A DNA stretch of 64,000 bases, from contig QPGO01000070.1 of NCBI GenBank assembly GCA_008632985.1, positions 248,001 through 312,000 on the forward strand, written 5' to 3'. Positions 21,981 to 58,379 of this stretch are shown here, one piece after another. The notes beneath the pieces were generated by a model, which did no database searches, was not told where the DNA came from, and saw only the letters and a program-made list of their open reading frames with translations. This stretch comes from Psammoneis japonica. Lineage: Eukaryota. Both the position numbers and the translations under genes were made by a program. Position 1 is the first letter of the stretch. Each line of letters begins with the position of its first letter.

Positions 21981-22169
21981 GAGTGAGCATGAAATGGTGG
22001 CATAGAGAGGCCGGCCGTAAACTTGCGAAACCGTCGGTCCTGCGTCGGGACAGAATCTTTGGAGTATCTTCGGAATATTTTGAGGCCGAAAGAGCAAAGA
22101 GAAGATAGAAGGAATCATCATCAATCGGCAATGGGAGCACGGAGTTATTAAGGACTAAGGACACCCACC

Positions 22170-23135
22170 ATGTCATCCCAGCTGTCTGCAGGAGCTCAGC
22201 GCACGGCTCAAGAGGCCGCCAATGCAGCTGTCGCGCACTTAAAAGGCAAGACCTATCTTGTCACAGGAGGTTACAGCGGAATTGGTGTCGAAACGTGCCG
22301 ATCGTTGCTCCGCCAGGGCGAAGCTGCAAAGGTGATTGTTGTGGGCCGCAACCGCAAGCTTCAAGATGAATTTGTCGACATGCTCAAACAAGAAGAGGGC
22401 ATTGACGCCAGTAAGATTGATGGTTCACACACCATGGATCTTTCGGATCTCGCGTCCGTCCAAGAATTCGCCAAGTATGTCAAGAGTGAATACTCCAACA
22501 TTGTGGCCATTTTGAATGCGGGCGTCATGAATACACCCCCTGGTGTGACCAAGCAAGGATACGAGCAACAGTTTGGCATAAATTGTCTTGGTCACTTTTT
22601 ACTAGCCAAGTCTTTGGTGGATATTACAGAGCGTCAGGTGTGGCTCACCTCGTCGGCCCACCGTCGCGACGGAAGTCCGCGCTTCAATGTGGAAGCCATC
22701 AAGACGTTTTGTTTGCCAGACTCGTCCGCCACGTACAATGGCTGGTCCGCCTATCAGCAATCCAAACTTGGTAACATTTTGCTCGCCAAGGAATTCGCCA
22801 AGCGGTACACCAAACTGCAGGCAGCTTCGTGCCACCCGGGCGTCGTGCGAACCAAGTTGGGCCGCCATTTGACCGTTTGGGATATTTTGAACTTTATCTG
22901 GAGCGCCATTTCTCGCGAGCTCTCCGGTGGTGACAATGGTGAACTCACCGCCAAGAGCATTGAGCAGGGTGCGGCAACCACGGTGACGGTGGCGGGCATT
23001 GACGACAAGGAGTGGGTACAAGGAGCTTACTACAGTAATTGCGAAATCATGGACGAGTCGGAATCGGCAAAGAACATGGATGACGCGGCTCAGTTGTTTG
23101 ACTTGTGCGATGAATTGTCCAAGGATTATCAGTAG
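22170..23135 (+). CDS. Short-chain dehydrogenase/reductase (retinol dehydrogenase/WWOX-like)
   Basis: TGGYSGIG, LNAGVM, NCLGHF, YQQSK and HPGVVRT. Confidence 0.92.
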   Translation: MSSQLSAGAQRTAQEAANAAVAHLKGKTYLVTGGYSGIGVETCRSLLRQGEAAKVIVVGRNRKLQDEFVDMLKQEEGIDASKIDGSHTMDLSDLASVQEFAKYVKSEYSNIVAILNAGVMNTPPGVTKQGYEQQFGINCLGHFLLAKSLVDITERQVWLTSSAHRRDGSPRFNVEAIKTFCLPDSSATYNGWSAYQQSKLGNILLAKEFAKRYTKLQAASCHPGVVRTKLGRHLTVWDILNFIWSAISRELSGGDNGELTAKSIEQGAATTVTVAGIDDKEWVQGAYYSNCEIMDESESAKNMDDAAQLFDLCDELSKDYQ

Positions 23136-25189
23136 GATATAATGACGGTGCCTGTGAAAGGATTTGGCGATTGACTTTTTAAATATAAATGGTAGTAGTG
23201 CCGTAATCAGGTCTGTGTCGTTGCGACTTGAAATATGGTCGACTGTGCTGTATGTTTTGGGAGGCAGACGCTACGCGACCAGCGTGCCAAACTACAGGTT
23301 TCCTCCTTCTCCGAGATAGTCCGAAGGAAGGAAAATGGAAACAACAAAGAAAACTGCAAGAGTGAATCATTTGCTCATTTATGTGCCTGTTACAAGCAAG
23401 TGGCATTCCTTGGTGTCCTCTCATTCCCCAGACAAGTCATGCTGTTTAAATGGGAAAAGGACAGGCATGGCATGAGGCGTGTCTTTTGGCAAACCCCGAA
23501 GCATGCAGGTGTTGAAGAAGAATCACTAACTCCTGATTGTCGTTTTTCTACCCCAGCATGTTTCAAGATGAACTCCCGGCAATTGATCAAAAACTCCAAG
23601 TTCTCCATGGCATTGGCGACATCCATGAGAGGAAGGCAACATTCCAGAGGCATGAGAGCTGTGGAGGGAAAGAAAAAGGTTGCAAGGTGGGATTTGGTCC
23701 AAATGGTGGCCCAATGACAAAAGTGATGCAACAGCATCCAGAGAAGGACAACAACGCAGGCGTGCAAGCAATCCTGGTGTGTCACCTTGCTGGGGCACCA
23801 GGCGGCAATTGTGAATGAAATCATGAACCAGAGGGAAACATCATGGGCCCTCTTGGCAAAATGCACCAACTCAGGAATGTTCTCACAGCTGCAGTCAACT
23901 GCAGTCCATCAATCTGCTTTTGCTCAGTTGCCTGCTTGGCACAAGGAGGCACACACCCAGTGGCTTGACACACACCCAAGCAATGAACAACAGCTCAAAT
24001 CTGACCTTGCCCAAGCACTGGCAGCTTGCAAAAAAAAGAACCAAAAAGTCAAGCACAAACACTCTGAGCAGATGACTCTTTTCCTCTGCTTCACCTGCAT
24101 GCAAACAGAACAAACAGGTGTCAGGCACCAGTTTCCCAGCATTGACAACTGTGCGGGATTTTTGCAAGACTTTAAAAAAGAGATGAGGTTGGATCAAAAA
24201 ATGTGACAGACACACACAAAAAGGTGACACAACACAAGGAGCAACAATGGCAGCCATGTGAAAATGAAAACAACATTGCACCAATTTCATGCATGTGCAC
24301 ATGACAGCACAAACATGACAAATTTAACTGACACAACATTTGGCTCCCTGGTGTCTGTCTGAGTGCTCTGATCAATTGCTTGAGGAGACAACACCATTGT
24401 CATCAATGCCCCATGATGTTGCAGCGTGCAATTCATGCAGAAAATTGCAAAAGAGCCAGTGACAATGATGCCCTGAACTTGACCACAAACCACATCCAGG
24501 GTCAATGTGGGTGCACATCTGTGCTTGTCACTCACCTTCCACAACATTTGGTGTGTTTTGTCACACAAAAATTAATCAACAGCATTGCTGGTGGCACGCA
24601 TTGAGTGCTGCACAAAAAGCACGGGGACACCGGAAATTGACTTTCTGCCCCATTTGTCTTTCCATCACTTGCTTGGTGTCTCACAAAATGCAGAGGGTTC
24701 TTGCAAGAAAGTTCCCACACTTTGTGATCTGTCCATGCTTCATCTGACACCTGTTTGTTCCTCAGTCATGCATTTTTTCTGTGCACAGCTGCGCCAGACT
24801 AACTTCACAAATGTGCCATCATGAAAAAAGGCAAGCTCACAAACGGCAACTTGCTGTGTGCTTGCAAAATTGACAATGTTGGCATCAAGCCTTTCAAAAT
24901 GATGAAAATCATGCACATCACTCAGCACGCAGCAAGGTTGCCACAGAGGGCACCTGTGCCTGTGGACACATTGTCTGCAGACACAAGGTTGAAAAACACA
25001 ATTTTGCACAGGAAATGCATGAGCGTGACAATGCACAGTGCTGCATGACAAAAAAGTCAATGTTGTGCAAAGCTCAGCAGACAGATGCCAGGGAGCCACC
25101 CCACTGTGTTTTCCAGAATGAACGGCATTTCTGCCATTGTCGCGTTGTTTGTGTGATGAGCGCAGAACTCGCCGGGACATTTTTTCCAT

Positions 25190-25560
25190 GACAAGCAGTG
25201 ATCGCCTCCATTTTGTGGGGGAAAAATGCCAAACAATTGAGTGGATGGGCATGTTTCAATGATCATGTCTCTCCCTCAAACACTGTCATGCAAACAAACC
25301 CTCAGTGTCTTGCCCCCCTTTTTGTGTGCGAGCAATCATTCACCAACAAATTCAACGGCTTTTTTCTCAATCAAATCACATTTTTGGAGAAAAGGAACAG
25401 CAGAAGCAAATTCCTTGCATGTGAAAAAGGGGGGCAAGACACTGAGGGTTTGTTCGGATGACAGCGTTTGAGGGAGAAATGTGGTCATTGAAACATGTGC
25501 ATCCACTTGGTCATTCAACGGTTTTTTTCCACAAAATGAAGGTGATCACTGCTTGTTGTT
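25190..25560. repeat. Inverted repeat, ~150-bp arms with ~75-bp spacer (MITE/foldback-like)
   Basis: tctccctcaaacactgtcatgcaaacaaaccctcagtgtcttgcccccc mirrored by ggggggcaagacactgagggtttgttcggatgacagcgtttgagggaga; acaagcagtgatc mirrored by gatcactgcttgt. Confidence 0.8.
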
Positions 25561-26699
25561 GCATCACAAATGACAACATGCCAGTCATTTTGATGCTTTT
25601 TACAAACATGTGTCCAAAAAACAAGGGGGTTTGCACCCACAATTTACCCATTTTGGATCATTTTAAAGAAAAATGACAAAATTGTTGTTTTTAAGAGGTT
25701 CCATCCCAGCCAGCCAGCTGGCTGGCTAGAGCAGAGAGGCTGTGGTGCACACGGTGCCTCTTCCCTGCTGCCACCACCTCTTGGACCACCATCACCTCTG
25801 CCCATTTTGGCCTCACTCACCATGCCGCAACTCCTGCCCAATGGGGGGCCTCAAAGCCTTGGTCTTGTCATCACCAAATCCCTTGCCAACCAACTTCTCC
25901 ACCACTCCACCAAACTTCACACTCACCTCACCACTCTCACCAATGAAAATGATGACTCTGCAACACTGTCTCCATCGCGAGTCTGCACCACACTTGGCAC
26001 CACAGTTGTTGTTCATGGCACTGCTGGCACACAATTCTTCACATTGGATCCCATCACACTTGTTGCCTCAGGGCCCCCACAAGTCCAGCTTGTCAATCTT
26101 TGCCTTCCTTGTTGTGCTTGAGGCTGCAGAACAAATTGCGTGAGTTTGGGATCCACAGATTTGAGATCTGCAACGGATCTCACGGGCGGCAGCACCACAT
26201 TTGCACCCCTTCAGCACTCGATTCACCTCCAGTTGTTTCTCACACTTGGCATCATCACCACATCTGAAGAATTTAAAAGTGTGCCATGAACCAGTTGCCA
26301 ATGTAAATTTGTCTTGCAAATGCCACCATGCGTGGCAATTTCCATCATGTTTTTGGAGAAATGCTTCAGAGAAATGGTGTGGGGTGAATCCGATTTGTGC
26401 AAAGTTTTGGACAATTTCCAAAATGCCAAAGCATTGAAAGGCATTGTCTCAACAAAGTGAAGAGTGGAGACTCTGTGGGGATTTAAAATCAGAAATTGAA
26501 ATGCATGGTTGAGAGAGGAGGCACTGCAGTTGCCATCTGCCAGACAAGATTGGCCACAGCAGCATCCAAATCAAATGCTTCTGCTCTGCCCACTGACTTG
26601 CACAGTTTGACTGCACACACTCACACCACAGCCTCTCTTTTCTCTGCAAACTCTGGCTCTAAAGAGAAGATGAGTCATCAGCCATTGACTCAAGCTGGT

Positions 26700-27640
26700 C
26701 CAAGGGTTCCAGGAGCTTCTGGCGGTGCTCCAGCATTTGCTTGTTGATCTCCACACTGTCTCATTCTGAGTCAGGGTGCTCCAAAAGATCTTTGATCTAC
26801 AAACTTCCATGGTGTGGGTGATTTGCTCCACCATTCTCCAAGACCCACTGCATCCTTTCCTCAACATCATCAAAATTGGGGCCCAACATTGGAGTGTGAT
26901 GAGGTTTGAGCAACTCTTCCACAACTCATGAAGAAAAGGTTGGTGGCGACATCATGACAACCAATTTGCTCCAAATGCCCAACGCAGACCAGCGCAACAT
27001 CATTGCCTTCCAGCACAATGATTGCTTTGCAGCCCAGCAACTCACAAAGCTCCATCTTTTTGTCCAACAAGTTGATGCCAACCATGTTTGGATCCAGGGG
27101 CTTGCCAAGCAAATCTGTGAGGCGTGCATCAACTGGACTTGAATTGTGATGCACGAGAACAAAACAGCAGCACTCAATGGCACTGCAATGTTCTTCACAA
27201 CTCATGGAGCCTTTTGCAAGGAGCTTGTTGTGGCTGGCATCCATGGCATGCCCTGCAAGTTTTCTTTGAAAGACAGCTTTTGCTTGCTTCTTGCTCCAGG
27301 GCTCATCCACAATGACTGCATCAACAATGGAGCCCACGAGTCAATGACTGTCCAACTTCCAAGGAATGGCTTTGTGGGCAGCTCCAGGATGATGAATGGT
27401 GTTAGATTGTGTGTGGTTGTTTGCTCCATGACATGTGGCTGCTGTCATGCATTTGAGCTCTACTTTGGAAATGATGGGTCAGCACTTTTTCATGTGGGGA
27501 ATGGCAAGTGTTGAACATTGTGCGGCTCTGCTCCAACCAAGTGCAGTGACACTTGGTCACCCCACTGCATCAAGAGAGGTTTTTCATGCAACAAATCCAA
27601 GAGCCAAGAGTGGCAAGGTGGTCTGGATGACATTGGCTTG
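26700..27640 (-). pseudogene. Decayed glycosyltransferase family 90 (CAP10/KDELC-like)
   Basis: KAVFQRKLAG, LLGCKAIIVLEGNDVA, VVMMSPPTFSS*VVEELLKP and FDDVEERMQWVL resemble GT90 consensus (YKAIIxLEGNDVA...SVVMMPPPTxxSWxMEELLxP). Confidence 0.75.
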
Positions 27641-29469
27641 GCAGCCTGCACATGTGGAACCTTCATGTCATTTGACAAGATTGTTGGGTCCACCATCATG
27701 ATGGTGTCTTGTTGTGACTCCGAGTCAATTTCAACAACATGAGCACACTTGTGGTTCATGGCAAGCTCTCTCACTGATGTGCGCAGCCACTGGTCATCCT
27801 TGTTGCCCAACATTTGATGTTGCATTGTTGCAGCAGAGTCACAAGCAAGGTGGGACACACCAATTGGACATGTGTCATTCTTTGACCCTTTTCTTGACAG
27901 ACGGAAAATGTTTTGGTCACTTGAGGGCTTCCCTTCTGCAGACAAAGGGACCTTGATGGATGTGTGCAAGAGGTCTGCCACCTCACCAGCCAATGGTTGT
28001 TTAGTTTGGTCTTCTTGAAAGCACCGGTCAATCACAAAAACCATGGTTTGATCCACAAACCCTTGCTGTTGTGCAGTTGTGATGGAATTTTGGGATGCTT
28101 GCACTCCTTTGTCAAGGAATGCCCCTCTTGGCAACCCAGCCCATCAAAGGGTGAGGTGTGACCACCAGAATCAAATGAAAGATGTTGCTCATGTTCCAAC
28201 CATCCATCTTTTCTGCTCCAACATTTTTGAGACAGCACTGTTGAAGGTGCACCTCCAGAGAGAACCACTGTGAAAAAAGAACAGATGTGAAGAACAAGGA
28301 CAGTCAGGATTGCAATGGCAGGTGAGAGACAACATGTTGCTCTTTGCAAAGCAAAGTCACTCAAATTGTCAACCACATCTCATCAAATTGACACATTTTT
28401 GTTTGTTGTTTTTGATCACTTGACAAGCTTTGCAAGACTGAAATCTGTCAGCTGGTGCTTGCCATCATTGACCTTGATCCATTGTTCACCATGAACATCC
28501 AAGTGGACAATGATGGGCTGACCTGTCTTGTTGTCTGGATGATGCAAACAAGCCACAAACACAGCCATTTGATGTGCATCTCATGCAACATTTTCTCCCA
28601 ACTGACCACCATTGCCAAAGGTGCACATGGCAGACGTGCCACAATGCCCACAAATGTCAACAATGTGTGGTGACGATGACAATTTTTTGTGCACCAAGGC
28701 ATCACGCTGCTGCAGTTCAATTGTCGTGGGTCCAAAATCTTCATTGTGACCTGCTCAAAACTTGAACAATTTGAGAGCTGTTGCTGTGCTGCCATTTGCA
28801 TCTTTCTTGGGTGGCACCAGTTGCCCCCTTTCCAACAATGTTGAGGTCATTGGCATTTGGCAAATCAACTTCATGAAGAGAATTTTGAGTCATGTTGTTG
28901 GTTTTCTTGCCACTTCCTGTGGACAAAACAATCCTCTTCCTTGTTTCCACAAAGTGATTTCGGAATGTTGCACTGAACTTGTTTCCTTGACTCTTCTGAA
29001 TCAATTGTTTGAGGTTTGACAGCAGCACACTGCATTGGCATGCCTTCCACATGCATGGTTCATGGTCATTGCAACCAAGGAATTGTCTTCAAATCCAAGT
29101 TCCAATGAGGCAGAAAATGATGTGCATTTTGTTCCCATGATGGATCAGGCAAAAAGAAGGATGCAAAGAACTGGTTCAAGACAGATGACAAAGCCAGCAC
29201 AGCAATTTTGGTGAGTCTTGAGTGGACTGAACGCAGTGTCATGATGTTGTTGTTGCTCTCTTCTTGCATTGTGGGTTCACAAAGTGCCACACTTCATTCA
29301 ATGAGGTGCATTCTGGCATTTTTCTTTCTTGTTTCTTGTGTCATTTCTGTGATTCTTTCTTGTCAGTGCAGATGCACAGAAGTGCTGCAGATGCGCATCA
29401 TTCAACATTTGGCTTGCTTGCTCAAAAATTCATCAAAGTTGTTTTTGTCCACAGTCGATTGTGAGCGCA

Positions 29470-29515
29470 ACACACACACACACACACAATCTAAAAGGGG
29501 GGGGGGGGGGGGGGG
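29470..29515. repeat. (CA)n microsatellite followed by a ~20-nt poly-G run
   Basis: cacacacacacacacacaatctaaaagggggggggggggggggggg. Confidence 0.85.
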
Positions 29516-29879
29516 TGCTTCAAAAAATTTGAAAGTTGATGGCAAAAACAACGTTCTTGGGACTCAACATGCCACCAAAATTGTTAAGTTTGCTTCATTG
29601 TGCAGATGCCATGCAGTCACTCACTTGCAACTTGCAAGTTGCTTGTCTCTTCACAGGTTGAAACAAGTGGGGCCCTGCTTTGCTCCATCCATCATGGTGA
29701 GAGTCGCCATGATGGCACTCATTTGTTGATGTCTTGCCATTTCTTTCTTGCTTGTGTTTCAGTTTTTGTTTGGTTTCAGCTGAAGCATGGCTTTCACAAT
29801 CCCGAGTCAAGCGCTTCTGCACCAAGCAGCTTTTGCTTCAAGCAAAATCATGTGACCCACAACATGAGCCACATGTGGG

Positions 29880-30125
29880 GTGCAAGCAAGTCTTGGTGAC
29901 CAGCAGGCAGTGTTGGCTTTGTTGGAAGCCATGTTTCTGAATTTCCACTGGAAAGTGGGTGCTGCTGCAGCTGTTGTGGACAAAATGAGCTCACACCACA
30001 GTGTGAGCATCAAAAAGGTGAATCTAGAATTGCTCAGAAGAAAAGCAAAAGACAAGAAACAATTGAGTGTCAGCAAGGGTGATGTGGCAGATGAGACATT
30101 TGTGGAGAACATGTTTGAAAAGAGC
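29880..30125 (+). pseudogene. Truncated first copy of the UDP-glucuronate 4-epimerase pseudogene (tandem duplication ~29521-30125 / ~30389-31015)
   Basis: VVDKMSSHHSVSIKKVNLELLRRKAK...KGDVADETFVENMFEK; upstream aaaaatttgaaagttga... repeated at 30389. Confidence 0.7.
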
Positions 30126-30801
30126 TTTGCTGAGAAAAGGGGTTTTTTCATGCACAGTTGCAGACATGCAAAAATGCGCACAATTTTGCACTCAAATTTT
30201 GATGAAATTTGTGCACAGAATTTGAATTGCATCTGGCACAAAGTCAATCATTTCATTGGTGTGTGGCTTGTCTAGATTGTCTGAAGCAATTGTCACTTTG
30301 GCCCTGGTTGATGGCATTGTGTTGCATCTCGATGTGAGTCTTTGGACAGTGTGTCTTGGTTCAGTGGCAGCATGGGGATGGACTGGTTCAAAAATTTGAA
30401 AGTTGACAGCAAATGCATTGTGTTCTCAGGACTCAACATGCTGCCAAAATCATCAATGTGCTTCATCGTGCAGATGCCACAGATGCAGTGCTGTCACTTG
30501 CATGTGTCACCTGGAGCCCTGCTCACACCAGTCTCTTTTCACTTTTCAATTGAAGTTTGCTGTTCACTCCATCACCAGTGAGAGTTGCCATGTGGTGGCA
30601 TTCATCAACAGTGCAACATGGTTGTTTGTCTTTGTCTTGTCAATTTCTCTGTTGCTTGTGCTGCAGCTTGTGCTCCAGCTTTTTGGGTTTCACGTGATGT
30701 GCAATTTTTGCACTTCACATCAAGCACTCATGCACCAAGCAGCAAGCAGCCTTTGCTTCCCAAGAATCATGTTCCCACAACATGGGCCATCACACATGGG
30801 G

Positions 30802-31650
30802 CACAATCAAGTCTTGGCAATGGGAGGTGCAGGCTTTGTCAGAAGTCATGTGTCTGAGCTTCTGTTGGAAAGAGGCAATGCCACAATTGCTGTGAATGGG
30901 GTGAATTTGCACCACAATGTGAGAGCATCAAAGAAGCAAATCTAGAAATTCTTAGAAGCACTCACAAAGGCAACATGGCAGATGAGATGTTTGTGAAGGG
31001 TGTATTTGAAAAGGAGTGACCAGAATGGATCTGTTGCATGGCAGAAAGAGCCAGGATTCAACCCAGTGTGGATGAACCTTTCACCCACATTTGCTCCAAC
31101 ATGGAGGGCACAATGCAGCCACTTGGGTTGTCTCATCAACGCAAGGTCAAGAGTTCTGTTTTTGCGCTGTTGTCCTCCCCTGTTGTTTGTGGCATGTCAA
31201 GATCCAGAGTTTTTGACAAAGCAATGCTGGCAGAAGATCATCCCATTGGCCCACACGCAACAACCCAGAAGGCAACCAAGTTGCTTTCATGCACCTTTCA
31301 TCATTTGCATGTGGACCCTGCAGTTGTCCTGGCATGGTGCCTTTTAAGTTTGTCAATGCGCTGGTCAAGGGCTGCCAACAGAGAAACACAGGCAAGGCAA
31401 TTTGATGCACAATTGCGCGCACATTTCCAACATTGTGCAGGGTGCTGTGCACGCCATTCTTGATTGGCCACAACCCACCTTTGAGGTGTTGGTTTTGGGC
31501 AAAGGTGGGCTAAATTCATTGCAAGACTTCACACAAATGGCAGAAAACACAGTGCGCAAGCAAGCCAATGTTGTCATCAAGGAAGAACATGCTCCAATGT
31601 TGCCAAGGCAAATTGTCTTTTTGGATGCAATCCAACAGCATCACCACCAG
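30802..31650 (+). pseudogene. Decayed NAD-dependent epimerase (UDP-glucuronate 4-epimerase-like)
   Basis: VLAMGGAGFVRSHVSELLLERG, MAERARIQPSVDEPF, PHATTQKATKLLSCTFHHLH (from PYAATKKAxELLAYTYHHLY), HISNIVQG and LGKG. Confidence 0.8.
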
Positions 31651-32284
31651 AACATGGAATTTGCCAAACCATGGAGTGTTGGGCAGCACAACCCATCAAA
31701 ACAGTTGAAGAGGTGGTGCCAACATCTTGGTTTGAGTGCAAATCATAAAAAAGTGCACTCCAACAGAAAACAAAGTCAAACAAAATACAAAAAGTGACAG
31801 CTGCTGCACGTCAAAACATTTTGAAACACAACAATTAAATGAAAGAGCTCCCCAATCATTTTTTTCCTGCAGCTTTCTGGTCAAACATTGCAGACCACAG
31901 ACATTTTCTGTGATTGGCAATTTCACGATGATTTGTGATTAAAAATGTTGAAACTGGACCTGCATTTCATCTGTGTCTCTGTCTGCAGCACTGTCAGTGA
32001 CGAAGGTTTGGGCTGCCAGCACTCTCTGCCAGAGCTGGCTTCAGAGCTGCTCCTTCAAGTTTGAAGAGTGCTGGGTGTGATGAAGCATCATCATGTGCCA
32101 TGACAGTGAGATGAGCTGGCAAGCTGGTCAAACACCCATGACTTGATCTTTTGCAAATTCATTGCAACACTTGCATGACTCAAGATTTCACCATGGAACC
32201 TTTTGTTGTTGCCATTGTTGTGATCTCATTCTTGATTTGCTGATTGATTTGCAATCCCTTCTAAAGTGCTTCATTTTGTCCACC

Positions 32285-32970
32285 ATGGGAGCCAAGTCTT
32301 CAAAGAGTGAGATGCCATTGGCACACAAATCCATTCAGGAAGGCACTTCTTGGGTGCAGGCAATCCAAGATGTTGAATGTTTGGACTGGAAACAGGGATT
32401 GTCAGATGACAAAATTCAAGCCCAAGCATTGCAACAGAATGATTTGCCAGTTCAGATGGCTGAACAAATCCATTTGGGAAATGCTCACAGCATGAGATCC
32501 ATTGCAACATTGAGAGCTCTGGAAATCATGGCAGCTTTGAACATGGCTGGGCTGCTTGCTTTGAAAAGAGCTGCAGTCAAGGCACATGAAGAGAGTGGCA
32601 CCTTGTGCCATTGCATCACTTCTGAACATGAGCCATTCTTTCATCCACTGCCAGAGAATTGCCAGAAAGAAGCTTTTGATTTTGTGAAGTCATCCACAAG
32701 AAAAAGCAAAGGAAAGTGCATCATTCATGACATGGTGGGAATGAGTTGGTCTGGTCTGGTTGCCACAGCCCACTGCATGATCATGACACAGACACTCGTC
32801 CAGTGCTGGAAACTGCAAAGCATGTTTGAAAGCAGCAAGAAACTGTGGCATCATGCAGCAAAGGCTTTCAGCAACAACAATTGGCAGCCATGGCTCAAGA
32901 GTGAACAATCTTCTTGGAGCAAAGCCCGGCATGGAAGCACCCACAGTCAAGGGTTGCCCGCCACTGCATG
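32285..32970 (+). pseudogene. Decayed dual-specificity phosphatase
   Basis: MGAKSSK start, IHLGNAHS, LNMAG, EAFDFV and GKCIIHDMVGMSWSG (degenerate VHCxAGxNRS). Confidence 0.75.
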
Positions 32971-35730
32971 ACTTTGATGCAATGTGTTCAATGCTTCTCT
33001 TGAGGACAGAGTTCATCCTCTTGAGAAGCTGTTGTCTTCATGCTGATGAGAGGATCTGGCAAGGAGTTTGCTGTGACACAATTCAAGCTGTCAAACACTC
33101 ATCTTTTGAGTGCCTTTGCATGCTGCTGGAGGCTGTCTGGCTTCTTCCAGTTTTAAATTTTTGCCTGATTTTGTGTCAGATGAATTTTCCTGTTGTGCAC
33201 CTGCTCACATGACACATGAATGTGAAAGTTTTGCATGAGCAGTCAGCACCAGGGAAGGTTTGATGCCAGAGCCCTTCTGTTCAAGACAAAGGCACCTCTT
33301 TGTTGGCTGTTGGCATCAACTCCACATGCTGGCTTCCACTGGCAGTGGTGCCTGGGGTTGCCAAAACAAGCTTGACAGAAGACTGGGGGCACAGGGCTGA
33401 GCATTGCACCAACCAAAAAAGTGAGAAGCACTCCAGTGGTGCACCCGCATGCACTCCGCATTGCCACACCTGCTTTCCTCTTTCAGCCAACTGATGCCAT
33501 CTGTCAGTTCTTGTCAGCACATGTTTTCCAACACACTCCTCAGCGCAAACATTTGTTGAAAGTGGTTGTTGTCATTTTTTCAACATTGGTCCTCCCAAGC
33601 TTTAGAGCAACTTTCTTGGGACTCTCCTTCCTGCATTCTCAACTCACAGCACTTCATTTTGCCCCATGCTTCCACAAGCAGTGGGTCAGCTTCTTGGTCA
33701 TCTTTCACAAAGAGCTCTCACCTTGCTTTCTTTTGAACTGAAGTGTGATGCTAAAATTTCCAAGCCTTGTCCACCTTTTCAGGGTGCTTCTCATCTCCAA
33801 GGCATGGCTTGTTTGAAGCCCATTCAACACACAACCAAATTCACACAAGTGTTGCTCAAAAATGTGACAGCTGAAAACTTGTTTTTGCAGTCTCATCACC
33901 AGGCTCAGAGGCAAGCTTGGCATTCTTTTCTGCAAGCAAGCCTTGCTGGCACAACCCAGCTGCAACTGTGGCACATTTCCAAAATCCCCAAGCGCACAAG
34001 CCACTTGTGGCAACAAGCCAGCTGGTCATCACCTTGCTCATCCCCAACAATGATGGCTGCTTTCTTTGTGCCTTAGAAACTCAAAGCATCCCACACTTCT
34101 TTTTGCACATGTCAAGTGCAACTTCCTTGACTGCTGCCAGCCATGAGCTCAGCAATGACAGATTTCTTTTCCAAGTCCTTGTGGCTCTCCAAGCTTTCCA
34201 CCCATTTAGCACAGCTTTGCCACACTGGTCAGCAACAGCAACAAATGCATTTGCTTTGCAGTCAAAGTTCTTTGCCTCATTGTTCATGCACTGATTGCAC
34301 CTCTTGCTGCTGGCGCCTCTTCAGACTGCCTTTTGTCACTGGTCACCAGCTTTGGAGAATGCCCAGCCTCAGCAAATGCTGTGCCCTGCAGGTGTGCAAC
34401 TGGTGTCCTCATTTGTGCTCTCTTGCACATTGTCCAATTTGTTTTGCAACATCTTTGCACTTGCTGAAACAAGCAGCATCACATGAGACACAATGGTGCA
34501 CTTTCACCCTTCACCTCTTTTGCTGCTCTGCCAACTTTGCTCTTTTGCTCCATCTTGACATTCAATCACTTTTTCAAGAGCAGCAGTGCCACATCTTCAA
34601 ACAGAGTGCAAAACAAACCTTTTCCAATCACTTCTTCAACCAGAGAGCAACAAACCTGCTTTTGTCAAAGTTTGGTGCCAGCTTAAATGTCCTGCAACTG
34701 GTGCCAACAGGGGGGCAATGTTGCAGGGCCCTGTGCTCCAAATTGAGAGATGGGCACTGAGCAAATTGTTGCAGAGTTTGCTGTTTTTGGCAACCTTTGA
34801 AAATTGCTCCTGAGTGGCTCACACTGCCACGGAACATTCAGCCAAGTGAGTTGTGCATTCTTCACTTTGCACGCACACATGAGAACTTTTTGTCCCTGAA
34901 TGAGGAGCTTTGCTCCAAGCTCATCTTGGTTCTTGCACAATGCACAGTAGCATTGAACCTGGACAAGCCTTCATTTACCAGGCATGATGACTCTGGCGGG
35001 GGAGGGGCAGTTGAGCACATTGTCCTCATGATGTGGGTCACTTGCAGCAGTTGGCCTGCACCAGTCATGTCAACACCTGCTCAGTGAATCAAGTGTGACT
35101 TGCATGGGCTTGTGCAGTGTGCACCTTTGGGTTGCACATCTCCTGCCACAAGAGCCTCACACAATGCAACACACTGCTGGCATCTGCCAGTTGCAAGCTC
35201 TTTGCACCATCCTTCTTGGAGGTTGGCAGCTCAGGTCTCACATTGCATCCTGTGAGGTGCCTTGTGGATTCCTTGGAGCAGTTTGTTGCTGCTCACAAGG
35301 CACACTCTAGAACAGCTGTTCACCAGCACTGGCTCCTTGAGCCACTGCTTGATGGCCTTGTTGGGATGAGCCTGCTGCAGAGGGGATGGCAGCGATTCCA
35401 GGGTGAGCGATTAGCCTTCAGACTCCTCCGGGATGATGGACATTGCCATTGCTTTGGACTCACAGACATTCGTCCTCGCCCAAAGCTCTTGTTGAAAGGT
35501 TAAAAAAACAAAAAATGGTGGCCACGTGTGCCACTGCTGGAACGGAAGAGATTTCATCTGAAAGGCCTTCCGCTCGAAACATGTAAATAAGCGGAAAGGT
35601 CACCTAAATGCAGTGCATCAGACAATGTTTTCTTAGACTCCCAATCTTTACGAAACACGGTGACGCGCTTCTTAAGTTAGGTTACTTCTTCCGAAACACG
35701 AACGGCGTTTGCGAAAACCACATTGTTTGT

Positions 35731-37308
35731 TTATTGTGCTGCAGCGTCAGTGCGCAAAGCTTTGACTGCAATAAGGAAGTTCTCGTTCTTGCCTTTTACT
35801 CCCGAAACGACAACAGCAAATTTACCCGGTCCCTTGACTGCTTTCGCAACCTTGAAACATTTTGGTGTACCTGCGCTTGAACCAATTGTTTGTTCTTCTG
35901 TCACTACGTCGCCGGCCTCCGAAAGCACCTTTAGTGATGCCCCAGACTTACTCCTGGAATACGTCAAAATCGCAGCCTGCTCTGTCGCCGAAAGCGAAAA
36001 ATCAATTTTGGATTTCTTTCCAGTACTCAACTTCACCAGCTCGACAATTTGTCGGTCATACTGATCCCCATCGGCTCTCTGTTTCTTCAATGCCTGCTCA
36101 AACGTTGGCCCCTGTCCTCCCACTTCCTTTAGTTGCTCTTTCGGCTCAATCAACTCTGCCATTCGCGCGCTTGGAGTACTGGAATGTATTTCCACCTTTT
36201 CACCAGTTCGCGGATCAAGAAATTTCTTAATCATTCTCCAAGAAAAGGAAAAGAAGCTAGGAGCGTTGATTATAATGGTGTGATTCATCAACTCGGGGAA
36301 GCTCCCGTTGGCTTCTTTCAGCCCCTTGAAGATTGCGAGCGTTCGGGAGTTGATCAAGCTCGCCGGTAGCCCTTTCAAATCTACTACCACTACCATTTCG
36401 CATCGACCATTTTCAGCAGCAGCCACCTGCTTTGCAAAAGCATGTTTCATGGCATACCACATGAACTTATTCACTTGCTCTTCAGGATTAATAGCACAGT
36501 CCATTCCATCAATAGAGAGTCTTCCCGCTACTAGATATGCCACTGGGCAACCGTTCTTAGCGATTCCACTGTAGAAGAATGGCAATTGCGTCAAAAATAC
36601 AGAAAGCGAGCATCCCAAAGCTGCTTCGATATCGCTGTAAAAGTCATGTTTCTGAGCCTTCGTGAATGGTTCAACTTGTTCGCTCAAGAGCTCGAAAACC
36701 TCTGGAGGATCGAATTTACGAGCACGCAGCAGCCTGCATAGTGCATATGGCTCCTCCTCGACGCCGTCAAAAATATGAACCAATCCATAGTATGCCTTGT
36801 CTTTGGACTTGAGCTGACTTCTAAATTCCAAACACTTCTCGAGTTCAACGTTTGTAAGCTCTCCAGGATAACCCGCCAGCTCAACGTGAGCATCCGTGGT
36901 CTGCAATGCTTGTTTCACAATCACTGTCTGTCTCATGTGTTTCTTTTCCCCTTTCTGATCCGACAACAACGTATCTGGAACTTTCATGACGATACTATTT
37001 CGCGGGTGGGGGTTGGCTATCGTAGCTGGCGCATAGCTCATGCCTGCCGATTGCTGCCTCGTTGAGTAAAACACGGTTTGAGCCAAGAGCATTTTCTCTC
37101 GTTCGGGCATGGCATTGAATTCGTTCTCAGACATGGTTTCGTACGCATCAAAATAATACTGAGACTGTCTATTGTCAGGAAGTGGAGAGAGGGTCGAGTG
37201 ACCTTCCTCTGCTTTTGCCGACGTGCTCTCTTTGACTGGCGATGGGACTTCCGATTCTCTCACGACAGCCTCCTCGTCGGCTGCTTTGGATGCACACAAA
37301 TTCCCCAT
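35731..37308 (-). CDS. CRAL-TRIO/Sec14 lipid-binding protein with putative N-myristoylation
   Basis: MGNLCASK start, LCRLLRARKFD, VVDLKGL and FPELMNHTIIINAPSFFSFSWRMIKKFLDPRT. Confidence 0.9.
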   Translation of the reverse strand: MGNLCASKAADEEAVVRESEVPSPVKESTSAKAEEGHSTLSPLPDNRQSQYYFDAYETMSENEFNAMPEREKMLLAQTVFYSTRQQSAGMSYAPATIANPHPRNSIVMKVPDTLLSDQKGEKKHMRQTVIVKQALQTTDAHVELAGYPGELTNVELEKCLEFRSQLKSKDKAYYGLVHIFDGVEEEPYALCRLLRARKFDPPEVFELLSEQVEPFTKAQKHDFYSDIEAALGCSLSVFLTQLPFFYSGIAKNGCPVAYLVAGRLSIDGMDCAINPEEQVNKFMWYAMKHAFAKQVAAAENGRCEMVVVVDLKGLPASLINSRTLAIFKGLKEANGSFPELMNHTIIINAPSFFSFSWRMIKKFLDPRTGEKVEIHSSTPSARMAELIEPKEQLKEVGGQGPTFEQALKKQRADGDQYDRQIVELVKLSTGKKSKIDFSLSATEQAAILTYSRSKSGASLKVLSEAGDVVTEEQTIGSSAGTPKCFKVAKAVKGPGKFAVVVSGVKGKNENFLIAVKALRTDAAAQ

Positions 37309-48174: not shown

Positions 48175-48600
48175 TGTTGTAATTGTAATTGTAGCGGCAG
48201 TTTGTTTTTGTTGTACGTACTGTAGAGCATGGCGGTGGTGGTGTTGCAGGCAGAAAATCTTTTGCTTCGTCTCCGCCCGGCTAACTTGCGCGCGTTGAAT
48301 GTTTAAATTCCAATGATTGGTCCTCATATCCATAATAAATTATTAGTCGTGTCTTGCGATCAACGTACTGTACGGTAAGTGGATTTGCATAGATGCAATG
48401 TCAGTCCCGAACCTACCGTTGGTCATTTTATTCAATGATACAGATAATAAACTTGATACTAATATAGTCATGTGGGATAGAAAATTGAAAAACTGAATAT
48501 CCATGAATATGTTGATAAATAGACTTCCAATGAGAAGCTGACTTGTTCGACCCAATTCGATCTCCCCGTTGAGTTTAAACATGCTGTGCAGCACGGCAGG

Positions 48601-48793
48601 AATGAAATTCTCATGTGCATCCGCATCTCTGTCGAATGCGCACCGGTGCAACCTGCCGTTGCCCAACTTTTCCAACATTTCCCTGGAATGCCCGCCGCCT
48701 CCGAATGTTGCATCTGCACACTGTGGACACCACAGGGCTTCATGGCCAGGTGGCCCACGTGGGGACGGACCTGGCCGGCACGTGAGGGAGCAT
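48601..48793 (-). pseudogene. rsmH: N-terminal fragment of RsmH/MraW 16S rRNA m4C methyltransferase
   Basis: MLPHVP...HLAMKPCGVH...ADATFGGGGHSREMLEKLGNGRLH..AFDRDADA across frameshifts. Confidence 0.75.
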
Positions 48794-48851
48794 CTCTGCA
48801 CCAACTCTCTCCAGCTGGAGGGCCCTCTGCTGGTGTCCAGTCCACCAAGGA

Positions 48852-49129
48852 CCTCAATTGAGGCAAAAACCTCAATTGAGGATGGTGCAAATTGTGTGGA
48901 ATTTGACAGACCGAACGGCGATGCCGGCCAGAATTTTTTTAAGGACTGAAAAACATTTTTGCGAGGGCAGGCATTTACATCGCTGAAATCAACACACTCT
49001 GAGACACAAACTCCACATGTGTTGTGTCTTGCGACTGCAGAGTTTTTGTGCTCGAATCACTGGGAGTTAAGCGACCATTTGGCATCTCTGGCAGGACACC
49101 CACGTAGAACATGCGATCCTCAATTGAGG
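48852..49129. repeat. Three copies of the palindrome CCTCAATTGAGG
   Basis: At ~48852, ~48870 and ~49118. Confidence 0.8.
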
Positions 49130-50577
49130 AAAAATTCCCCGGCAGACTAGACACCAGCCAGCCAAGTGGCAGGAAGGGGACACGGAAAGTCGGGGGAACC
49201 CAAAAAGATGGTGGAATTCTGTCAAATGTGTGTGCTTTTTCTCACTCAAATTTCAACTGTGTGACAAAAACCTTCTGAACACACGTGCTTTTAACGCAGA
49301 TTTAAAAGCTGCGTCTGAGTGCGAAAAAGCAGCATCACCAAGATTTTGTGGGCATGTTGCAGCATTTTGCTGTCATGAACCCGATGACAACACTGCACTG
49401 CTCCCACAGAATGCCTGGATGGCTTCAGCCAAGCTGTTTGAATGGCTTGAAATCGTCTGTTCCATCGCAGACAATCATTGTCGATCGTCGCTTGGTGCAG
49501 ATTTTTGATTTTTGTCATGGCAGAAGATGGGGCTTGGCACAAAAAATTGAGCATGACATCACAAGCACAAGTTCTGCACCATGCTGCACGACAATTTTCC
49601 ACCGTCTTTGCGGGATTGTGTGAAAATGGTGCTTTCGCTGCAAGCACAACTCCATTGCGAACCTGAGCTGGAGAAAAGCACAAACACAGTCTGTTGCCAC
49701 CGGATGCACAGATGAGCTTTTTGACGTGTTCCAGCCGCACGTGAACCAAATCGTGCACAAAAATGACATTTGCGCGATTTTTGCGCAGTCCCCAACTTGC
49801 AATCGAACTTTCACCACCAAAAGCACAGATTTGTGCAAATGCAAATGTTTTGCAACACTGGCAAGACTCGTGTGAGTGTTGCAACATCATTGTTGTTGTG
49901 CTGTCTGTGTTTTTCATTGAGTTAAAAGATTCGCAACACAACGGATGATTTTCGGTGAAAATGTTGCCGTCACTTGGATGTCACCTAAATGTGTCTTTCT
50001 ATGATGCCACTTGGCAGGTTTTCCACCTGCAAAAAAATCTCAGCATAAATCTGCTGATGTGCAATCAGTGTTGAGTCTGCTGAGGAAGTTTGTGACACAT
50101 GTCCCATGAGGATTTGAACACCCCTCAAAAAACTGTTTAAATGTTCACACTCTAGGAGCCTACAAAAGTCAATCCGTCCAAGCATTTTTGTTAAAATGCT
50201 GCATGCACTAAAACACACGTGAATTGCACTCAAAATCCGATTGTCATTTTGTGCATCACCTGGGACTGGAACACGTCTTTTGTTGATTGTCGGTGCACGA
50301 ATTGCAACTGACCTCAAAACATTCAAGCTCAAAAATTCCACCGTCTTTCCGCGCCTCCTTCCTGCGGTGCTGTGATGACTCTTGTCACGATTTTGCACAC
50401 CAGCTGGACAATTCTCCATGCCTTCCAGATGGGCATGCACACCATGATGCCAGCACCGCACGCGCACCGCACCACGATGCAAAACAACAGTCTGTTTGTC
50501 CACCCAGGCGTGGTTCCTTTTCTTCTTTTTTTGACAATGTTGGATGATGTGTGTTTTGACACAAGCCAGCTTCAGCC

Positions 50578-50928
50578 ACAAGTGCCGCCAAAAAACTCAA
50601 AAACTGACATCCTCGTCGGGCAAGCAAAGTGGATTTTGGCCATTTTACGAGAAAAATGAAGCAGAGTTTTTGCTTGTTTCTGCTGGCTTTCTATGGGTGA
50701 TCTCAGCAATTTCTGCACGTCGCTCCGAAGAATGAAGAAAAGCACAAACAACCTGTTCTGCATGGGGTCTCACTCGCGCGACAGCGCGCACGACCACCAA
50801 GATTTTCTTGCACTGGGAGCTCGTTTTCTTACAAAAAAGCAGCTTTCAGGCAAGTGGAAAGTAGATTTTGAGCTGTTTGCCAAGAAAACGTCATGATGTC
50901 AGTCTTTGATTTTTTCGGTGGCACTTGT
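50578..50928. mobile_element. MITE-like element with ~35-bp imperfect terminal inverted repeats
   Basis: acaagtgccgccaaaaaactcaaaaactgacatc vs gatgtcagtctttgattttttcggtggcacttgt. Confidence 0.5.
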
Positions 50929-53879
50929 CAGCCAGCTAAAAGAGCCACGATGAATGCCCCGCAGCTTCCTTCCACTCGAGAGGAGATCATTGTGCACTTG
51001 GTGTTTGGCGATGGAGGCACCCATGATGGCTGGGAGATGTGCTCTGTTGCGCTCTTTCCTTTTGTGTTTGGAATTCCAACAGGACAGGTCTGCCTGACCA
51101 CAAGCGAAGCGGTGAGGCAGCGCGCAGCCACGGCTGACCTGTTGCGGCTTCAAGTGGAAAGCCGCGATGAGCTCTTGTCGACGAACCGACCGCCAGATGA
51201 CGCAGAACATTTCCCCGCTGGCTGTGATTCTTGCTTGCGGGAAATCTGTTGCAGTCATGGGAGCAGCTTTAAAGACATGGCCACAGCACCTCCATGCTCG
51301 ATTTGGGTGATCACGGGGCATGGATTCCCAGTGATCCGGGCCTGCGTCATGCAAACAAGGACAAGTGACGGAGCAAGCCATCAAATCCCTTTCACCGACT
51401 TGCCTGGACCTGCTCCTTCCATTCTTTCCATCATTGACATTTGTGGTTCGCAATGGGATGCCGCTGCCACATTTGGCTGTTTTGCCGCAAATCCAAACAG
51501 GAAATTGAAGAAACGCCGCGAGAGAGTCGCCGCAAGCGATGCCCCTTTTGCCTGCGAAAACGCTGATGCTGCATGGGCTTTTCGGGTTGGGGCCGCGGGT
51601 GATCGTCTGAATCCTCCCAGTGATGAAGACGCTCTTTCGAAAGCTTTCGGGGATGTTGTCGTCTGTTCTGTTCTTGCCGCCGCAAAGGACTTTGCCGACA
51701 ACGACCTCACAGGAACAGACATGGGCTCCCTTTTTGTCCAAAAAATTTCCTGATTGAGTGCTCATCACCGTGACAGGAATGTCCCTGAGAAACATGTGTC
51801 CAACCCAAAAGCCAACCTGCACCGTCCACAGGCGCTGATGCAACATGGACTGTTGGAATTGAATCAGGATGCTTTCAATTGCAGTCTGTTTGCTCGCCAG
51901 AACGAATGGTTCTTGACCCGAGCTCGGATGTGACCTTCTGCTGTGGCGGAAGCCAAGTCCAATCTTGATTGACTGTGTTGTGGTCTGTTTGCAGGCATGG
52001 CACTGCAGCCACCGAAATGCCGTGGATCGTTTGGAGTCGCGTGCAGAGAAACTTTGGTCAAGGCTGTCAGGTTCACTCGGTCCAGGAATCTGCACAACCA
52101 ATGTTCGCCTTGATTGGGACGAGGAAAGAAATTCTCTTGTGCGCTCCGATGATGGGATGCCAATTGAAGCCTGGGCCTTGCCTTGTGGAGATTTGGTGAG
52201 GATTTCTCATCATGTGACAAACATGACAGTCAATGGCAGTTGGGATGACGAGGAGGGGTCTTCGGACGTGGAGCAACCGCCGGCACAAGAAAGCACAGGA
52301 ACAGCAGATGGCGCAGAAGAGAGAGAAACGGCCACAGAAGCAAATGGAGTAGACACAGACAAGGAAAGGTCGCGTCCCACAGTTTCTGCTTAATCGACAT
52401 CCCACAGTTCGACTGTGGAACAACCCATCTGCTGCTCGAGCTCAACCCCAAACCTGCAGTGGTTGTTCTTGTGGGTGTTTGGAGGTGGCAGGCAAAGAGG
52501 TCTCTCGCTGTGATGGTTGAAGAATGAGCCGGATCTTGTGATGGTTCTTTTGCCCATTAGAGTTCGAAACGTGCTGTCGGACGAAAGAGCGCTCCAACTT
52601 CAACAGCTTCCATGGACACACCTGAAGTTGTGTTTGCTTCACCGGCTGAACGCAAGCAGGCCCCATGCGATCAAAGCAATCTTCAAAGGCAAGTTTGTAA
52701 TGTTGTCATTTGTTGACAAACAATTGATTGTTGGTGATTTTTATTTTAAGTTGTCAACACCAAACATTTTAGTTCATTTCACTGTCAACAGGTGGGACAC
52801 TCTCCATCTGGTCACCAGGGCAAAATCTTGTGGTTTGAAGGCTTCTTAGAGGTGGTGCTTTTCCCATCCCACCAACGCACTTCCGTGTTGATGAAAACTG
52901 GCTTCAAGTGGCATCAAGGAGTGCACGGCAAATGTCCCATGAACGTAAGATGAGATTTGTAGAAAAGAACATTTCCAAATGCACCCAAACTGCTGCCAGG
53001 ACAACGGGAGAACTTGCCAGAAAGCAAAGGAAAAATTCCGGTCAATCACGCTCTGGCAGGACTCCCAAAAACTCAGCATGCTGGAGTTTTTTAGGCCAGC
53101 TTCCCCATCTTGCATCGGAAATTTGGTCCCGGAATGCCAACAACGGATCGCGAAAGACGCGGGGGCAGAAGCAGAATCCCACCTGCGGAACATCAACAGG
53201 CAAAACACAGCAACACCGCCACCCGCCACACTTCATGCAAAACACAGTGACACCACCACACTTCACAAAAAGACAAAACAACTGTGTCATTCTGCCTTTC
53301 ATGAGCTCACAGGTGTTCCTTCGAGAAAGGAGACAAGCAAACAATCTTCATTCATTGAGTTCAAGACCGACCCAAAGACAGATCTTTTGGTTGGCATCAT
53401 CCTGTCACAAGAAGATTTGAGGGGTTTTGGATCCGTTCTCTTTGGGTGATGGTGTTGCAGCTCCCTTGCAATCCAGCACATTCACTCCATTTTCACTGAC
53501 CAGCAACCCCATGCCAGCCATGCTTCGCCAATCTGCCCAAAAAGCCATTGCAGTGCTGCGCCACTCCTGGAACAGCAGTCAGCAGTCTTTGTTTTCTTCC
53601 CTGAGGACCACCCCCGGTGTTGGCTTGTGGCTGCTGCTTCTGCCACACTTGCGGTGGCAGCGACGCATGGCCAAGAAGAAGAGAAAGCGCTGGAAGAACA
53701 AGCAGCTGTGGCAATGTCTCCTCGACGGTTCAATGAGGAACCAAAGAACAGCATTCAAATGGCTGCTGCATTGCAGAGTCATCACCCATTCCGTTCCTTG
53801 GCAAGTTTTGCCATTCCAACCAACATCGCGGCACGTGTGAGTTTCTCATGCCCACTGGACCAATGCCACAACTCTTGAC

Positions 53880-54542: not shown

Positions 54543-54716
54543 TGCAAGCTCAAGCTGAGGTTGATGTCAAAACAAAGAAGTGAGTAGACCGAAGAGAGGG
54601 AGAGCCCAAGCATCAGCGAGTGCTGGGGAGCGCTGGCGAGCCCTCTCAAACGGCTGCGTTAACCCAACATCCAAAATCAATGCTGTGTGTCAGAAGCATG
54701 CGAGTGAGTTACTGCA
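54543..54716 (-). repeat. 3' LTR
   Basis: Matches 59820-59987 with 14 substitutions and a 6-bp duplication (caagct) by manual alignment. Confidence 0.93.
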
Positions 54717-54838
54717 CTCTTCCCTTCCATGATCCGAAAGAACCAGAGGATCATGCAAAGGGCCAAAACTAGAAACCAAAACCCAAAGAAATCATGACAG
54801 TGGGAGGAAACCCAGGTGTTGGGAAGAAAACCCCCTGA

Positions 54839-58212: not shown

Positions 58213-58379
58213 TCAAGTCCCACATCGTCTTCGTCATTCACAATGTAATTTTCAAAATCGTCATCATCAAACAAATCAGCAGCATGTGCATGACAATCAT
58301 CAACGCAATCAGTGCAATCATCAAACACACAGGAATCAGGAGCGACACACTCGGACGACAGCTCTTCAAGCTCATTGGG

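Follow-up and report, generated by a model that had tools for sequence, protein, structure and literature searches.

We analysed a 64,000-nt window of contig QPGO01000070.1 from Psammoneis japonica (the window is the whole stretch of DNA considered here, and all coordinates are positions in it) and found in it a 12-kb block in which the dinucleotide steps TA (TpA) and CG (CpG) are almost erased and CA and TG almost doubled. Two mutation processes, confined to this island, rewrote the block in place after the copies within it had arisen. The block occupies the gap between two intact convergent genes and contains a repeat together with gene-like stretches, among them a tandemly duplicated relic of a UDP-glucuronate 4-epimerase. 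We think it probable that it represents an island of dead DNA, made of the repeat and of spare host-type gene copies, which was rewritten by TpA hypermutation and CpG decay, its silenced state being the trigger.

Loss of TA and CG steps in the block

Expected step counts were taken from the density of each step in the 34,750 bases of ordinary DNA of the same window. The block held 43 TA steps for 456 expected (Poisson P=6e-137) and 96 CG steps for 691 expected (Poisson P=3e-178), while CA occurred 1,464 times for 875 expected and TG 1,332 times for 906 expected. The books balance: 413 TA and 595 CG steps, 1,008 together, were lost, and 1,015 CA and TG steps were gained. Whole-block observed/expected ratios were 0.05 for TA, 0.15 for CG, 1.92 for CA and 1.81 for TG. 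The CG ratio of ordinary DNA was 1.00, in line with the CpG loss already pointed out in an initial annotation made from the sequence. In 2-kb windows between 24,001 and 34,000 the ratios ranged from 0.02 to 0.07 for TA, from 0.07 to 0.24 for CG and from 1.74 to 2.07 for CA and TG, compared with 0.42-0.71 (TA) and 0.83-1.19 (CG) in 2-kb windows of wholly ordinary DNA. At a finer scale, each 500-bp step across 23,501-35,500 contained 0-5 TA, compared with 10-43 in ordinary DNA.

Both edges were resolved to about 100 bp and fall just beyond the 3′ ends of the two intact neighbour genes. On the left, the last dense TA lies at 23,447 and CG is dense until 23,322; on the right, the first TA to return is found at 35,501 and TA regains its density from 35,584, CG being dense again from 35,393. 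The limits first given for the block, 23400-35580, were accurate within 100 bases. GC content was 0.45-0.49 in the block and 0.46-0.49 alongside, slightly lower in the block, in which CG loss exceeds TA loss, as the two processes would predict. In six-frame counts, TAA and TAG together numbered 73 in the block against 652 for TGA, the corresponding figures for ordinary DNA being 1,124 and 1,272. Loss of TA thus removes TAA and TAG, so that dead DNA displays long open frames such as the phosphatase-like frame described below.

Similar losses were observed at conserved positions of the epimerase relics (copies A and B). In an alignment of 116 epimerases of the diatom family, 190 aligned positions were at least 90% conserved, and the relics retained 86 of these 190 residues overall. 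None of the 13 conserved Tyr was kept: nine had become His (CAY), two Cys (TGY), one Phe and one Ala, which agrees with the Tyr to His or Cys changes reported at the outset. Conserved Leu and Phe were retained in 10 of 11 and 7 of 9 cases, respectively. At the DNA level, we considered dinucleotides conserved in at least 80% of 80 intact diatom-like metagenome loci. None of the 12 conserved TA steps was unchanged (8 CA, 2 TG) and only one of the 6 conserved CG steps was, whereas other dinucleotides with at least nine sites were 33-80% unchanged. AT-to-GT and GA-to-AA changes were also frequent, which fits TA and CG steps lying across codon borders. Divergence from homologues of other diatoms is therefore concentrated at TpA and CpG, the bias that the initial annotation had supposed.

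Repeated sequences within the block differ from one another in the same manner. Of the 116 adjacent double mismatches between copies A and B, 25 were CA versus TG, by far the largest class (7 in the second largest), as would result from independent resolution of one ancestral TA or CG. The inverted repeat located inside the repeat-family member has 133-nt arms that are 82% complementary and extend to about 210 nt; 24 differences separate the arms, including four CA/TG double mismatches and three CG/CA. Furthermore, the TA at 31,003-31,004, one of the 43 survivors, reads TG in the sample's own contig.

The window contains five TA-depleted blocks (1-1,000, 9.6-11.7 kb, 19.6-21.9 kb, 23.45-35.5 kb and 48.5-59.6 kb), which sum to 28,550 of 64,000 bases (44.6%), and every one of them stops within a few hundred bases of intact genes of ordinary composition. 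Four have lost both TA and CG. The remaining one, a younger block with a match to RT_RNaseH_2 at 56318-57187 on the minus strand (E=1.8e-28), showed observed/expected ratios of 0.10 for TA and 0.72 for CG, and its GC content is slightly raised, as would be predicted for TA loss only. With 68 TA left, this block has been nearly stripped of TA and yet keeps most of its CG, which indicates that TpA loss is separable from CpG loss and faster. That the 12-kb block is at an older stage than this gypsy-type block, as initially proposed, is plausible given CG ratios of 0.15 and 0.72, TA ratios of 0.05 and 0.10 and the more degraded relics of the former. A 167-nt repeat resembling long terminal repeats (LTRs) has one copy inside the younger block and its partner just beyond the depleted zone. 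Of the 14 differences between these copies, six oppose TA (outer copy) to CA or TG (inner copy), four belong to two adjacent TG/CA doubles, and two oppose CG to CA. The outer copy keeps its TA, and the depleted zone thus ends inside the element and not at the element end.

Surviving TA steps have a particular context. YTAR (Y, pyrimidine; R, purine) accounted for 71 of 133 surviving TA in depleted blocks, whereas only 205 of the 1,314 TA of ordinary DNA have this context, an odds ratio of 6.2 (P=5.5e-21); RTAY accounted for 7 of 133 compared with 395 of 1,314. Among the products, RCA and TGY were enriched more than YCA and TGR. While this flank bias is solid, a preference of the mutator for 5′-TAY-3′ on either strand is tentative. 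Sparing of YTAR provides the first hint of a flank preference, which a candidate deaminase must reproduce.

Simpler explanations of the composition were rejected. Neither native composition nor an assembly artefact agrees with conserved residues replaced as predicted, with broken frames and with repeats that differ at TA-derived sites; in addition, an independent assembly of the run agreed with the window, from which it departed at 1 position over 4 kb and at 2 over 8 kb. An explanation by transcription strand was dropped as well, the asymmetry between CA and TG along the block being small and of changing sign.

Contents of the block, paralogues and neighbouring genes

Coordinates of the features are collected in the table.

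Table. Features of the 12-kb block, its neighbour genes and the younger block.
Feature	Position	Strand	Remarks
Hypermutated block	23450..35500		
Repeat-family member, probable transposable element relic	24072..25973		summed contig depth; many contigs 80-95% alike
Inverted repeat inside the repeat-family member	25114..25633		arms about 25114-25323 and about 25424-25633
Stretch earlier named GT90	26574..28143	-	family unconfirmed; paralogue elsewhere in the genome
Epimerase copy A	29523..30200	+	tandem duplicate limited to the 5′ region and roughly 100 residues at the start of the catalytic domain
Epimerase copy B	30390..31720	+	near-complete diatom-type UDP-glucuronate 4-epimerase relic across three reading frames
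Dual-specificity-phosphatase-like open frame, 274 codons	32147..32968	+	weak resemblance; paralogue elsewhere
Short-chain dehydrogenase gene, intact	22152..23135	+	adh_short E=6.6e-17; ordinary TA and CG; 3′ end towards the block
CRAL-TRIO protein gene, intact	35734..37308	-	CRAL_TRIO E=4.3e-21; ordinary TA and CG; 3′ end towards the block
Younger block with Ty3/gypsy-type reverse transcriptase-RNase H	48500..59600		TpA lost, little CpG loss
LTR-like repeat copy in the younger block	54551..54717		partner 59822-59988 beyond the depleted zone, TA retained

Two tandem epimerase copies had been announced in the initial annotation. One of them, copy B, is indeed a near-complete relic, but the second, copy A, duplicates only its first 0.9 kb. 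For copy B, tblastn returned pieces at about 30,793-31,680 in three frames, covering residues 87-303 of protein P0037. The Rossmann start GGAGF is found at about 30823 and the motif YTYHHLY reads CTFHHLH; the frame changes near 30940 and 31310, and there is one in-frame stop. The open reading frame (ORF) 31020-31460 of this copy matched PDB entry 5u4q (E=1.1e-7), with the catalytic YAATK reading HATTQK. An exhaustive HMMER search with the same ORF gave 146 cluster representatives at E<=0.001, the best match being P0035 (E=9.6e-36); P0037 matched at E=1.7e-17, whereas in a word-based protein search with the relic ORF none of 166 candidates scored. The best matches form a highly conserved diatom family, called UDP-glucuronate 4-epimerase by one source. 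With the catalytic YxxxK lost and no single open frame, the relic is a pseudogene; it retains an N-terminal membrane-anchor region of host type. Thus, as claimed at the outset, the signature is not limited to transposable elements and covers host-type gene copies, the epimerase relic being closest to diatom enzymes.

Copies A and B are 65% identical in DNA between 29523-30040 and 30390-30958, as direct repeats spaced about 868-891 nt apart. Diatom epimerases matched 29906-30200 of copy A by tblastn, where the motif NDYYDV reads SSHHSV. Directly upstream of copy A, at about 29470-29520, a run of CA dinucleotides is followed by about 19 G, and the sample contigs break there. Among proteins of this kind, P0035, P0036 and P0041 (761-893 residues) carry two tandem epimerase domains and a hydrophobic C-terminal tail; a two-domain form of the enzyme therefore exists in the family.

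Pfam was run on 100 ORFs, read from stop to stop and 70 codons or longer, which overlap 23.2-35.8 kb. At E<=0.01, only two of them gave a match, namely the flanking CRAL-TRIO gene and the phosphatase-like frame. The latter matched DSPc with E=0.003 and 17.8 bits, under the cut-off of 33.5 bits, and 19 of its 21 PDB matches (E up to 10) were dual-specificity phosphatases, the best at E=0.097. It displays the IHLGN motif, but its HC(X)5R loop is broken and aligns as H-D-x-x-G-x-S-W-S. The evidence for the phosphatase identity that had been assigned to this frame is coherent but weak: motif and type of PDB match agree with it, whereas the score stays below the DSPc cut-off and the catalytic loop is not intact. 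The GT90 assignment found no such support. For the three minus-strand ORFs of that stretch, no GT90 match was obtained in Pfam (E up to 10), PDB or the protein atlas, although the CKAI letters are present in ORF 26873-27340 of the minus strand. No viral hallmark or transposase domain was found by Pfam in the 100 ORFs, a search of low sensitivity in DNA this degraded, and tblastx of the block against the rest of the window gave 0 matches. Over the repeat-family member, summed contig depth was 439-733 compared with about 58-66 in the flanks, summed depth not being equal to copy number, and many contigs 80-95% alike with many loose ends aligned there.

Paralogues were sought among contigs of the one sample containing the stretch, which is probably its source, aligned to 19,000-38,000 at 80% likeness; no RNA data set is listed as containing the stretch. 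A 3,476-bp contig of ordinary depth, from elsewhere, matched 26672-26880 and 26993-27774 at about 86% identity. Similarly, one X1 contig (1,332 bp) and one X2 contig (732 bp) matched 32161-32506 and 32665-32964 at about 82-87% identity. An epimerase paralogue contig matched 30,002-30,122 in copy A (85%) and 31,184-31,311 in copy B (78%). It keeps TA, shows the consensus residues Ile and Gly at sites that read Val and Arg in the relic, and continues into the conserved G-D-V-P-Y-T-C motif with a TAC Tyr; this paralogue is apparently intact. Paralogous contigs thus do exist in the same sample, as the initial annotation had presumed. At 80% likeness no extra contigs were found over the intact neighbour genes, nor over some 4.6 kb of the block and the greater part of the 19.6-21.9 kb block; in these two blocks the absence carries little weight, since copies that were themselves hypermutated may no longer reach 80%.

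Contigs of run X2 start and stop at gene ends (19000-19263, 22111-23217 and 35641-37441), and this run looks like a transcript assembly. It also contains contigs of the epimerase paralogue, of the phosphatase-like paralogue and of the repeat family at 24.1-25.3 kb. Over most of the block, run X2 has no contig at least 95% alike, absent cover being no evidence of silence. Between 19695 and 24200, a sample contig differs from the window at 15 places, 11 of them in the 19.6-21.9 kb block, a concentration which may reflect allelic variation; in the large block, the contigs depart from the window at just 3 places over 12 kb.

The initial annotation had also raised synteny of GT90, epimerase and phosphatase. 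We examined 10 long diatom-like contigs with an epimerase and gave 61 of their 122 ORFs of at least 130 residues to Pfam; the set leaves out antisense ORFs inside larger ones, L027 and L072 (duplicates that repeat L026 and L071) and L025. Neither GT90 nor DSPc was found by Pfam among the epimerase neighbours in these 10 contigs, and no synteny of the three genes was observed. Likewise, when 259 neighbouring ORFs from 14 diatom-like contigs were compared with the block by tblastn, 78 of 79 matches fell in the epimerase relics and one, at chance level, elsewhere. The absence of neighbour relics from the block and of GT90 or phosphatase neighbours from the contigs indicates that the block was not copied from a conserved gene cluster. 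A DUF6824 protein adjoins the epimerase gene in 3 of the 10 contigs (L018, L047 and L063) and may be a conserved neighbour of it; the block contains no relic of this protein.

The two neighbour genes have TA observed/expected ratios of 0.41-0.6, and the best named relatives of the CRAL-TRIO protein are from diatoms (37-39% identity). Elsewhere in the window, we noted a full-length silicon transporter gene at 5086-6855 on the minus strand (Pfam Silic_transp, E=5.4e-151) and a myosin motor at 45354-48339, also on the minus strand, in three open frames presumably separated by introns. Long single-exon genes are among those of the window, as fits a diatom.

Mechanism and rival explanations

The reading that we favour involves two processes, both ending in CA or TG. 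The first changes 5′-TA-3′ to CA or TG, i.e. A:T to G:C on either strand, and the second changes CG to TG or CA. The first process would be the targeted hypermutation followed in real time on integrated viral DNA in Bigelowiella natans, and its chemistry most likely that of a TadA/ADAT2-like deaminase which, recruited to silenced chromatin, would deaminate adenine in DNA. The second would correspond to deamination of 5-methylcytosine in methylated DNA, as expected of silenced diatom repeats. Their trigger would be the silenced state of a domain made of the repeat and non-functional spare copies, and not the pairing of duplicates. Several points weigh against this scheme. Adenine deamination is read from the direction of change alone, CpG loss could be due to the same enzyme instead of methylation, and the identity with the B. 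natans process would likewise be drawn from nothing beyond a shared signature. With TAY as best target, Tyr codons should yield Cys (TGY), whereas those of the relic gave 9 His and 2 Cys (binomial P=0.065). Finally, the sample contains further copies of the repeat and of each of the three gene-like stretches, which would also fit a trigger by duplication.

Such a trigger, resembling repeat-induced point mutation (RIP), would involve detection of duplicated DNA by homology followed by its mutation, the block being hit as multi-copy DNA. It agrees with the contigs from elsewhere in the sample, 78-87% alike, that align to 26672-27774, to 32161-32964 and to part of each epimerase relic, with the many contigs on 24.07-25.97 kb and the lack of extra contigs on the two intact neighbour genes, and with the tandem duplication inside the block; moreover, a relationship of diatom DNMT4 enzymes to RID, a factor of RIP in fungi, is reported as possible (PMC9998398). 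However, the direction of change is reversed, TpA being destroyed with no AT enrichment, and the epimerase paralogue keeps TA and consensus residues, mutation having hit one copy only. The portions of the block and of the 19.6-21.9 kb block that lack extra contigs argue weakly in the same sense, and the main text of the B. natans study describes a single-copy target (bioRxiv 10.64898/2026.01.13.699255). We regard a trigger of this kind as unlikely. Less probable to us is foreign cargo, in which a decayed giant-virus or large mobile-element insertion carrying host-like sugar-metabolism and phosphatase genes would have been targeted as foreign. The B. natans targets are viral according to the same text, the edges of the block are sharp, and no conserved epimerase neighbours matching the block were seen in the 10 long diatom-like contigs. 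In addition, a contig of a giant-virus bin (L081) encodes an epimerase 60% identical to the diatom enzyme, beside a dUTPase and a radical-SAM protein, which reflects either viral gene capture or a contaminated bin. Yet over roughly the same stretch the relic is nearer to a diatom protein (108 bits) than to the viral-bin protein (76.6 bits). It has the membrane-anchor region of host type, its same-sample paralogue is 78-85% alike in DNA, and the Pfam search for viral hallmark and transposase domains, within its low sensitivity, found none.

Other alternatives concern the chemistry, while the favoured scheme invokes adenine in DNA. Sequence cannot tell whether A became G on one strand or T became C on the opposite one, and TpA is palindromic like CpG, as expected of a modifying enzyme that reads the duplex. 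The mutated base could be T, with TET/JBP-like oxidation at TpA to 5-hydroxymethyl- or 5-formyl-uracil and subsequent mispairing with G; 5-formyluracil does mispair with G. We know of no TET/JBP-like thymine-oxidising enzyme or modified base in diatoms, and excision repair of modified T should give mixed substitutions, whereas 10 of the 12 conserved TA went to CA or TG. We consider this thymine-side route rather improbable. Editing at the RNA level, where transcripts of retroelements or retrocopies would be hyper-edited from A to I and reverse-transcribed into the genome, is disfavoured and seems hardly credible. ADAR-type enzymes do favour a 5′ U (bioRxiv 10.64898/2026.01.13.699255), and one depleted block contains a retroelement. 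Against editing of RNA, both strands are affected about equally along 12 kb, and the tandem copies, the arms of the inverted repeat and the LTR-like pair were resolved independently after they had arisen. Moreover, the block is one continuous domain comprising a repeat and several unrelated gene relics, and the B. natans mutations are described in the main text as arising in DNA, in place.

Relation to known systems and meaning

The process had been treated as unknown in the initial annotation, but a description of TpA hypermutation has been available since April 2026; it is the first one and concerns viral inserts of a single chlorarachniophyte. Mettrop et al. (bioRxiv 10.64898/2026.01.13.699255) followed B. 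natans through mutation-accumulation lines and found that, of 302 new point mutations in the nuclear genome, 231 lay within two regions of integrated viral DNA. According to the main text of that study, nearly all mutations of the viral regions were A:T to G:C, all GC-biased ones were at TpA and the rate was about 1,000-fold above background; 124 TpA-depleted clusters were found in the genome and an ADAT2-like deaminase was proposed as the enzyme. A term search of this main text returned no CpG, flanking context or diatoms, and its supplements may bear on CpG and flanks. A full-text literature search found no report of TpA hypermutation in diatoms.

The block shares with B. natans the change of A:T to G:C at TpA giving CpA or TpG, discrete affected regions beside normally evolving DNA, long-term TpA depletion with excess of CpA and TpG, and some affected coding sequences with host-like domains. 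It differs in belonging to a diatom, chlorarachniophytes being another branch of the supergroup, and in the degree of depletion, which is nearly complete here (TA observed/expected 0.05) compared to a rho of 0.45 in the active region derived from nucleocytoplasmic large DNA viruses (NCLDV). What can be identified in the block is the relic of a host-type paralogue along with a repeat, and no virus; the block also loses CpG and spares YTAR. The process would thus appear to be of a known but very new kind, its signature matching the TpA hypermutation of B. natans. What is added to the published work is the diatom, the host-type paralogues, the saturation and the joint CpG loss; the sparing of YTAR and the possibility of telling TpA loss apart from CpG loss are added as well.

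The initial annotation had compared the block to RIP of ascomycete fungi. Both display regional, dinucleotide-tied transitions with sharp edges and broken frames, and in both repeats and spare copies are killed; ordinary gene copies are indeed affected here. However, RIP changes C to T mostly at CpA, producing TpA and AT-rich DNA, whereas the block has its TpA destroyed with GC nearly unchanged. RIP also mutates all duplicate copies, whereas here one epimerase paralogue appears intact, so that the damage is not reciprocal. The analogy therefore holds for the outcome and not for the chemistry, and a common trigger is unproven. Decay of 5-methylcytosine resembles the block in the depletion of CpG with matching TpG and CpA excess in silent DNA, stronger in the older block, but it accounts for only about 595 of about 1,008 lost steps and cannot explain TpA loss. 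Diatoms methylate transposable elements via DNMT5a (PMC9998398).

APOBEC3 (C-to-U in complementary DNA) and ADAR (A-to-I in double-stranded RNA) similarly deaminate selfish nucleic acids with a preference for neighbouring bases. They act on replication intermediates or RNA before integration, whereas the block was changed in chromosomal DNA, on both strands and with host gene copies included. The natural target of the tRNA adenosine deaminases TadA/ADAT2, a candidate family only, is A34; U33, which precedes it, corresponds to the T found in front of the mutated A. In the bacterial TadA substrate a pyrimidine follows the target A, which would fit the sparing of TA before a purine.

We put forward tentatively, as a possibility we would not yet bet on, that diatoms carry a heritable defence aimed at chromatin domains. 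It would edit adenine at 5′-TA-3′ in DNA alongside CpG methylation and permanently destroy transposable elements and surplus copies of the cell's own genes; in this window, 45% of the sequence would have been rewritten in this way. The defence would be homologous to the system of the rhizarian B. natans and would thus be an ancient counterpart of RIP, of opposite chemistry, shared by stramenopiles and rhizarians. A saturated footprint in a diatom suggests wide occurrence of the process in diatoms, a major group among the primary producers of the sea. For annotation, gene callers may accept long open frames in dead DNA. The younger and older blocks form a natural time series that separates TpA loss from CpG loss, and in these genomes the process would influence how pseudogenes decay, how gene families turn over and what becomes of transposable elements.

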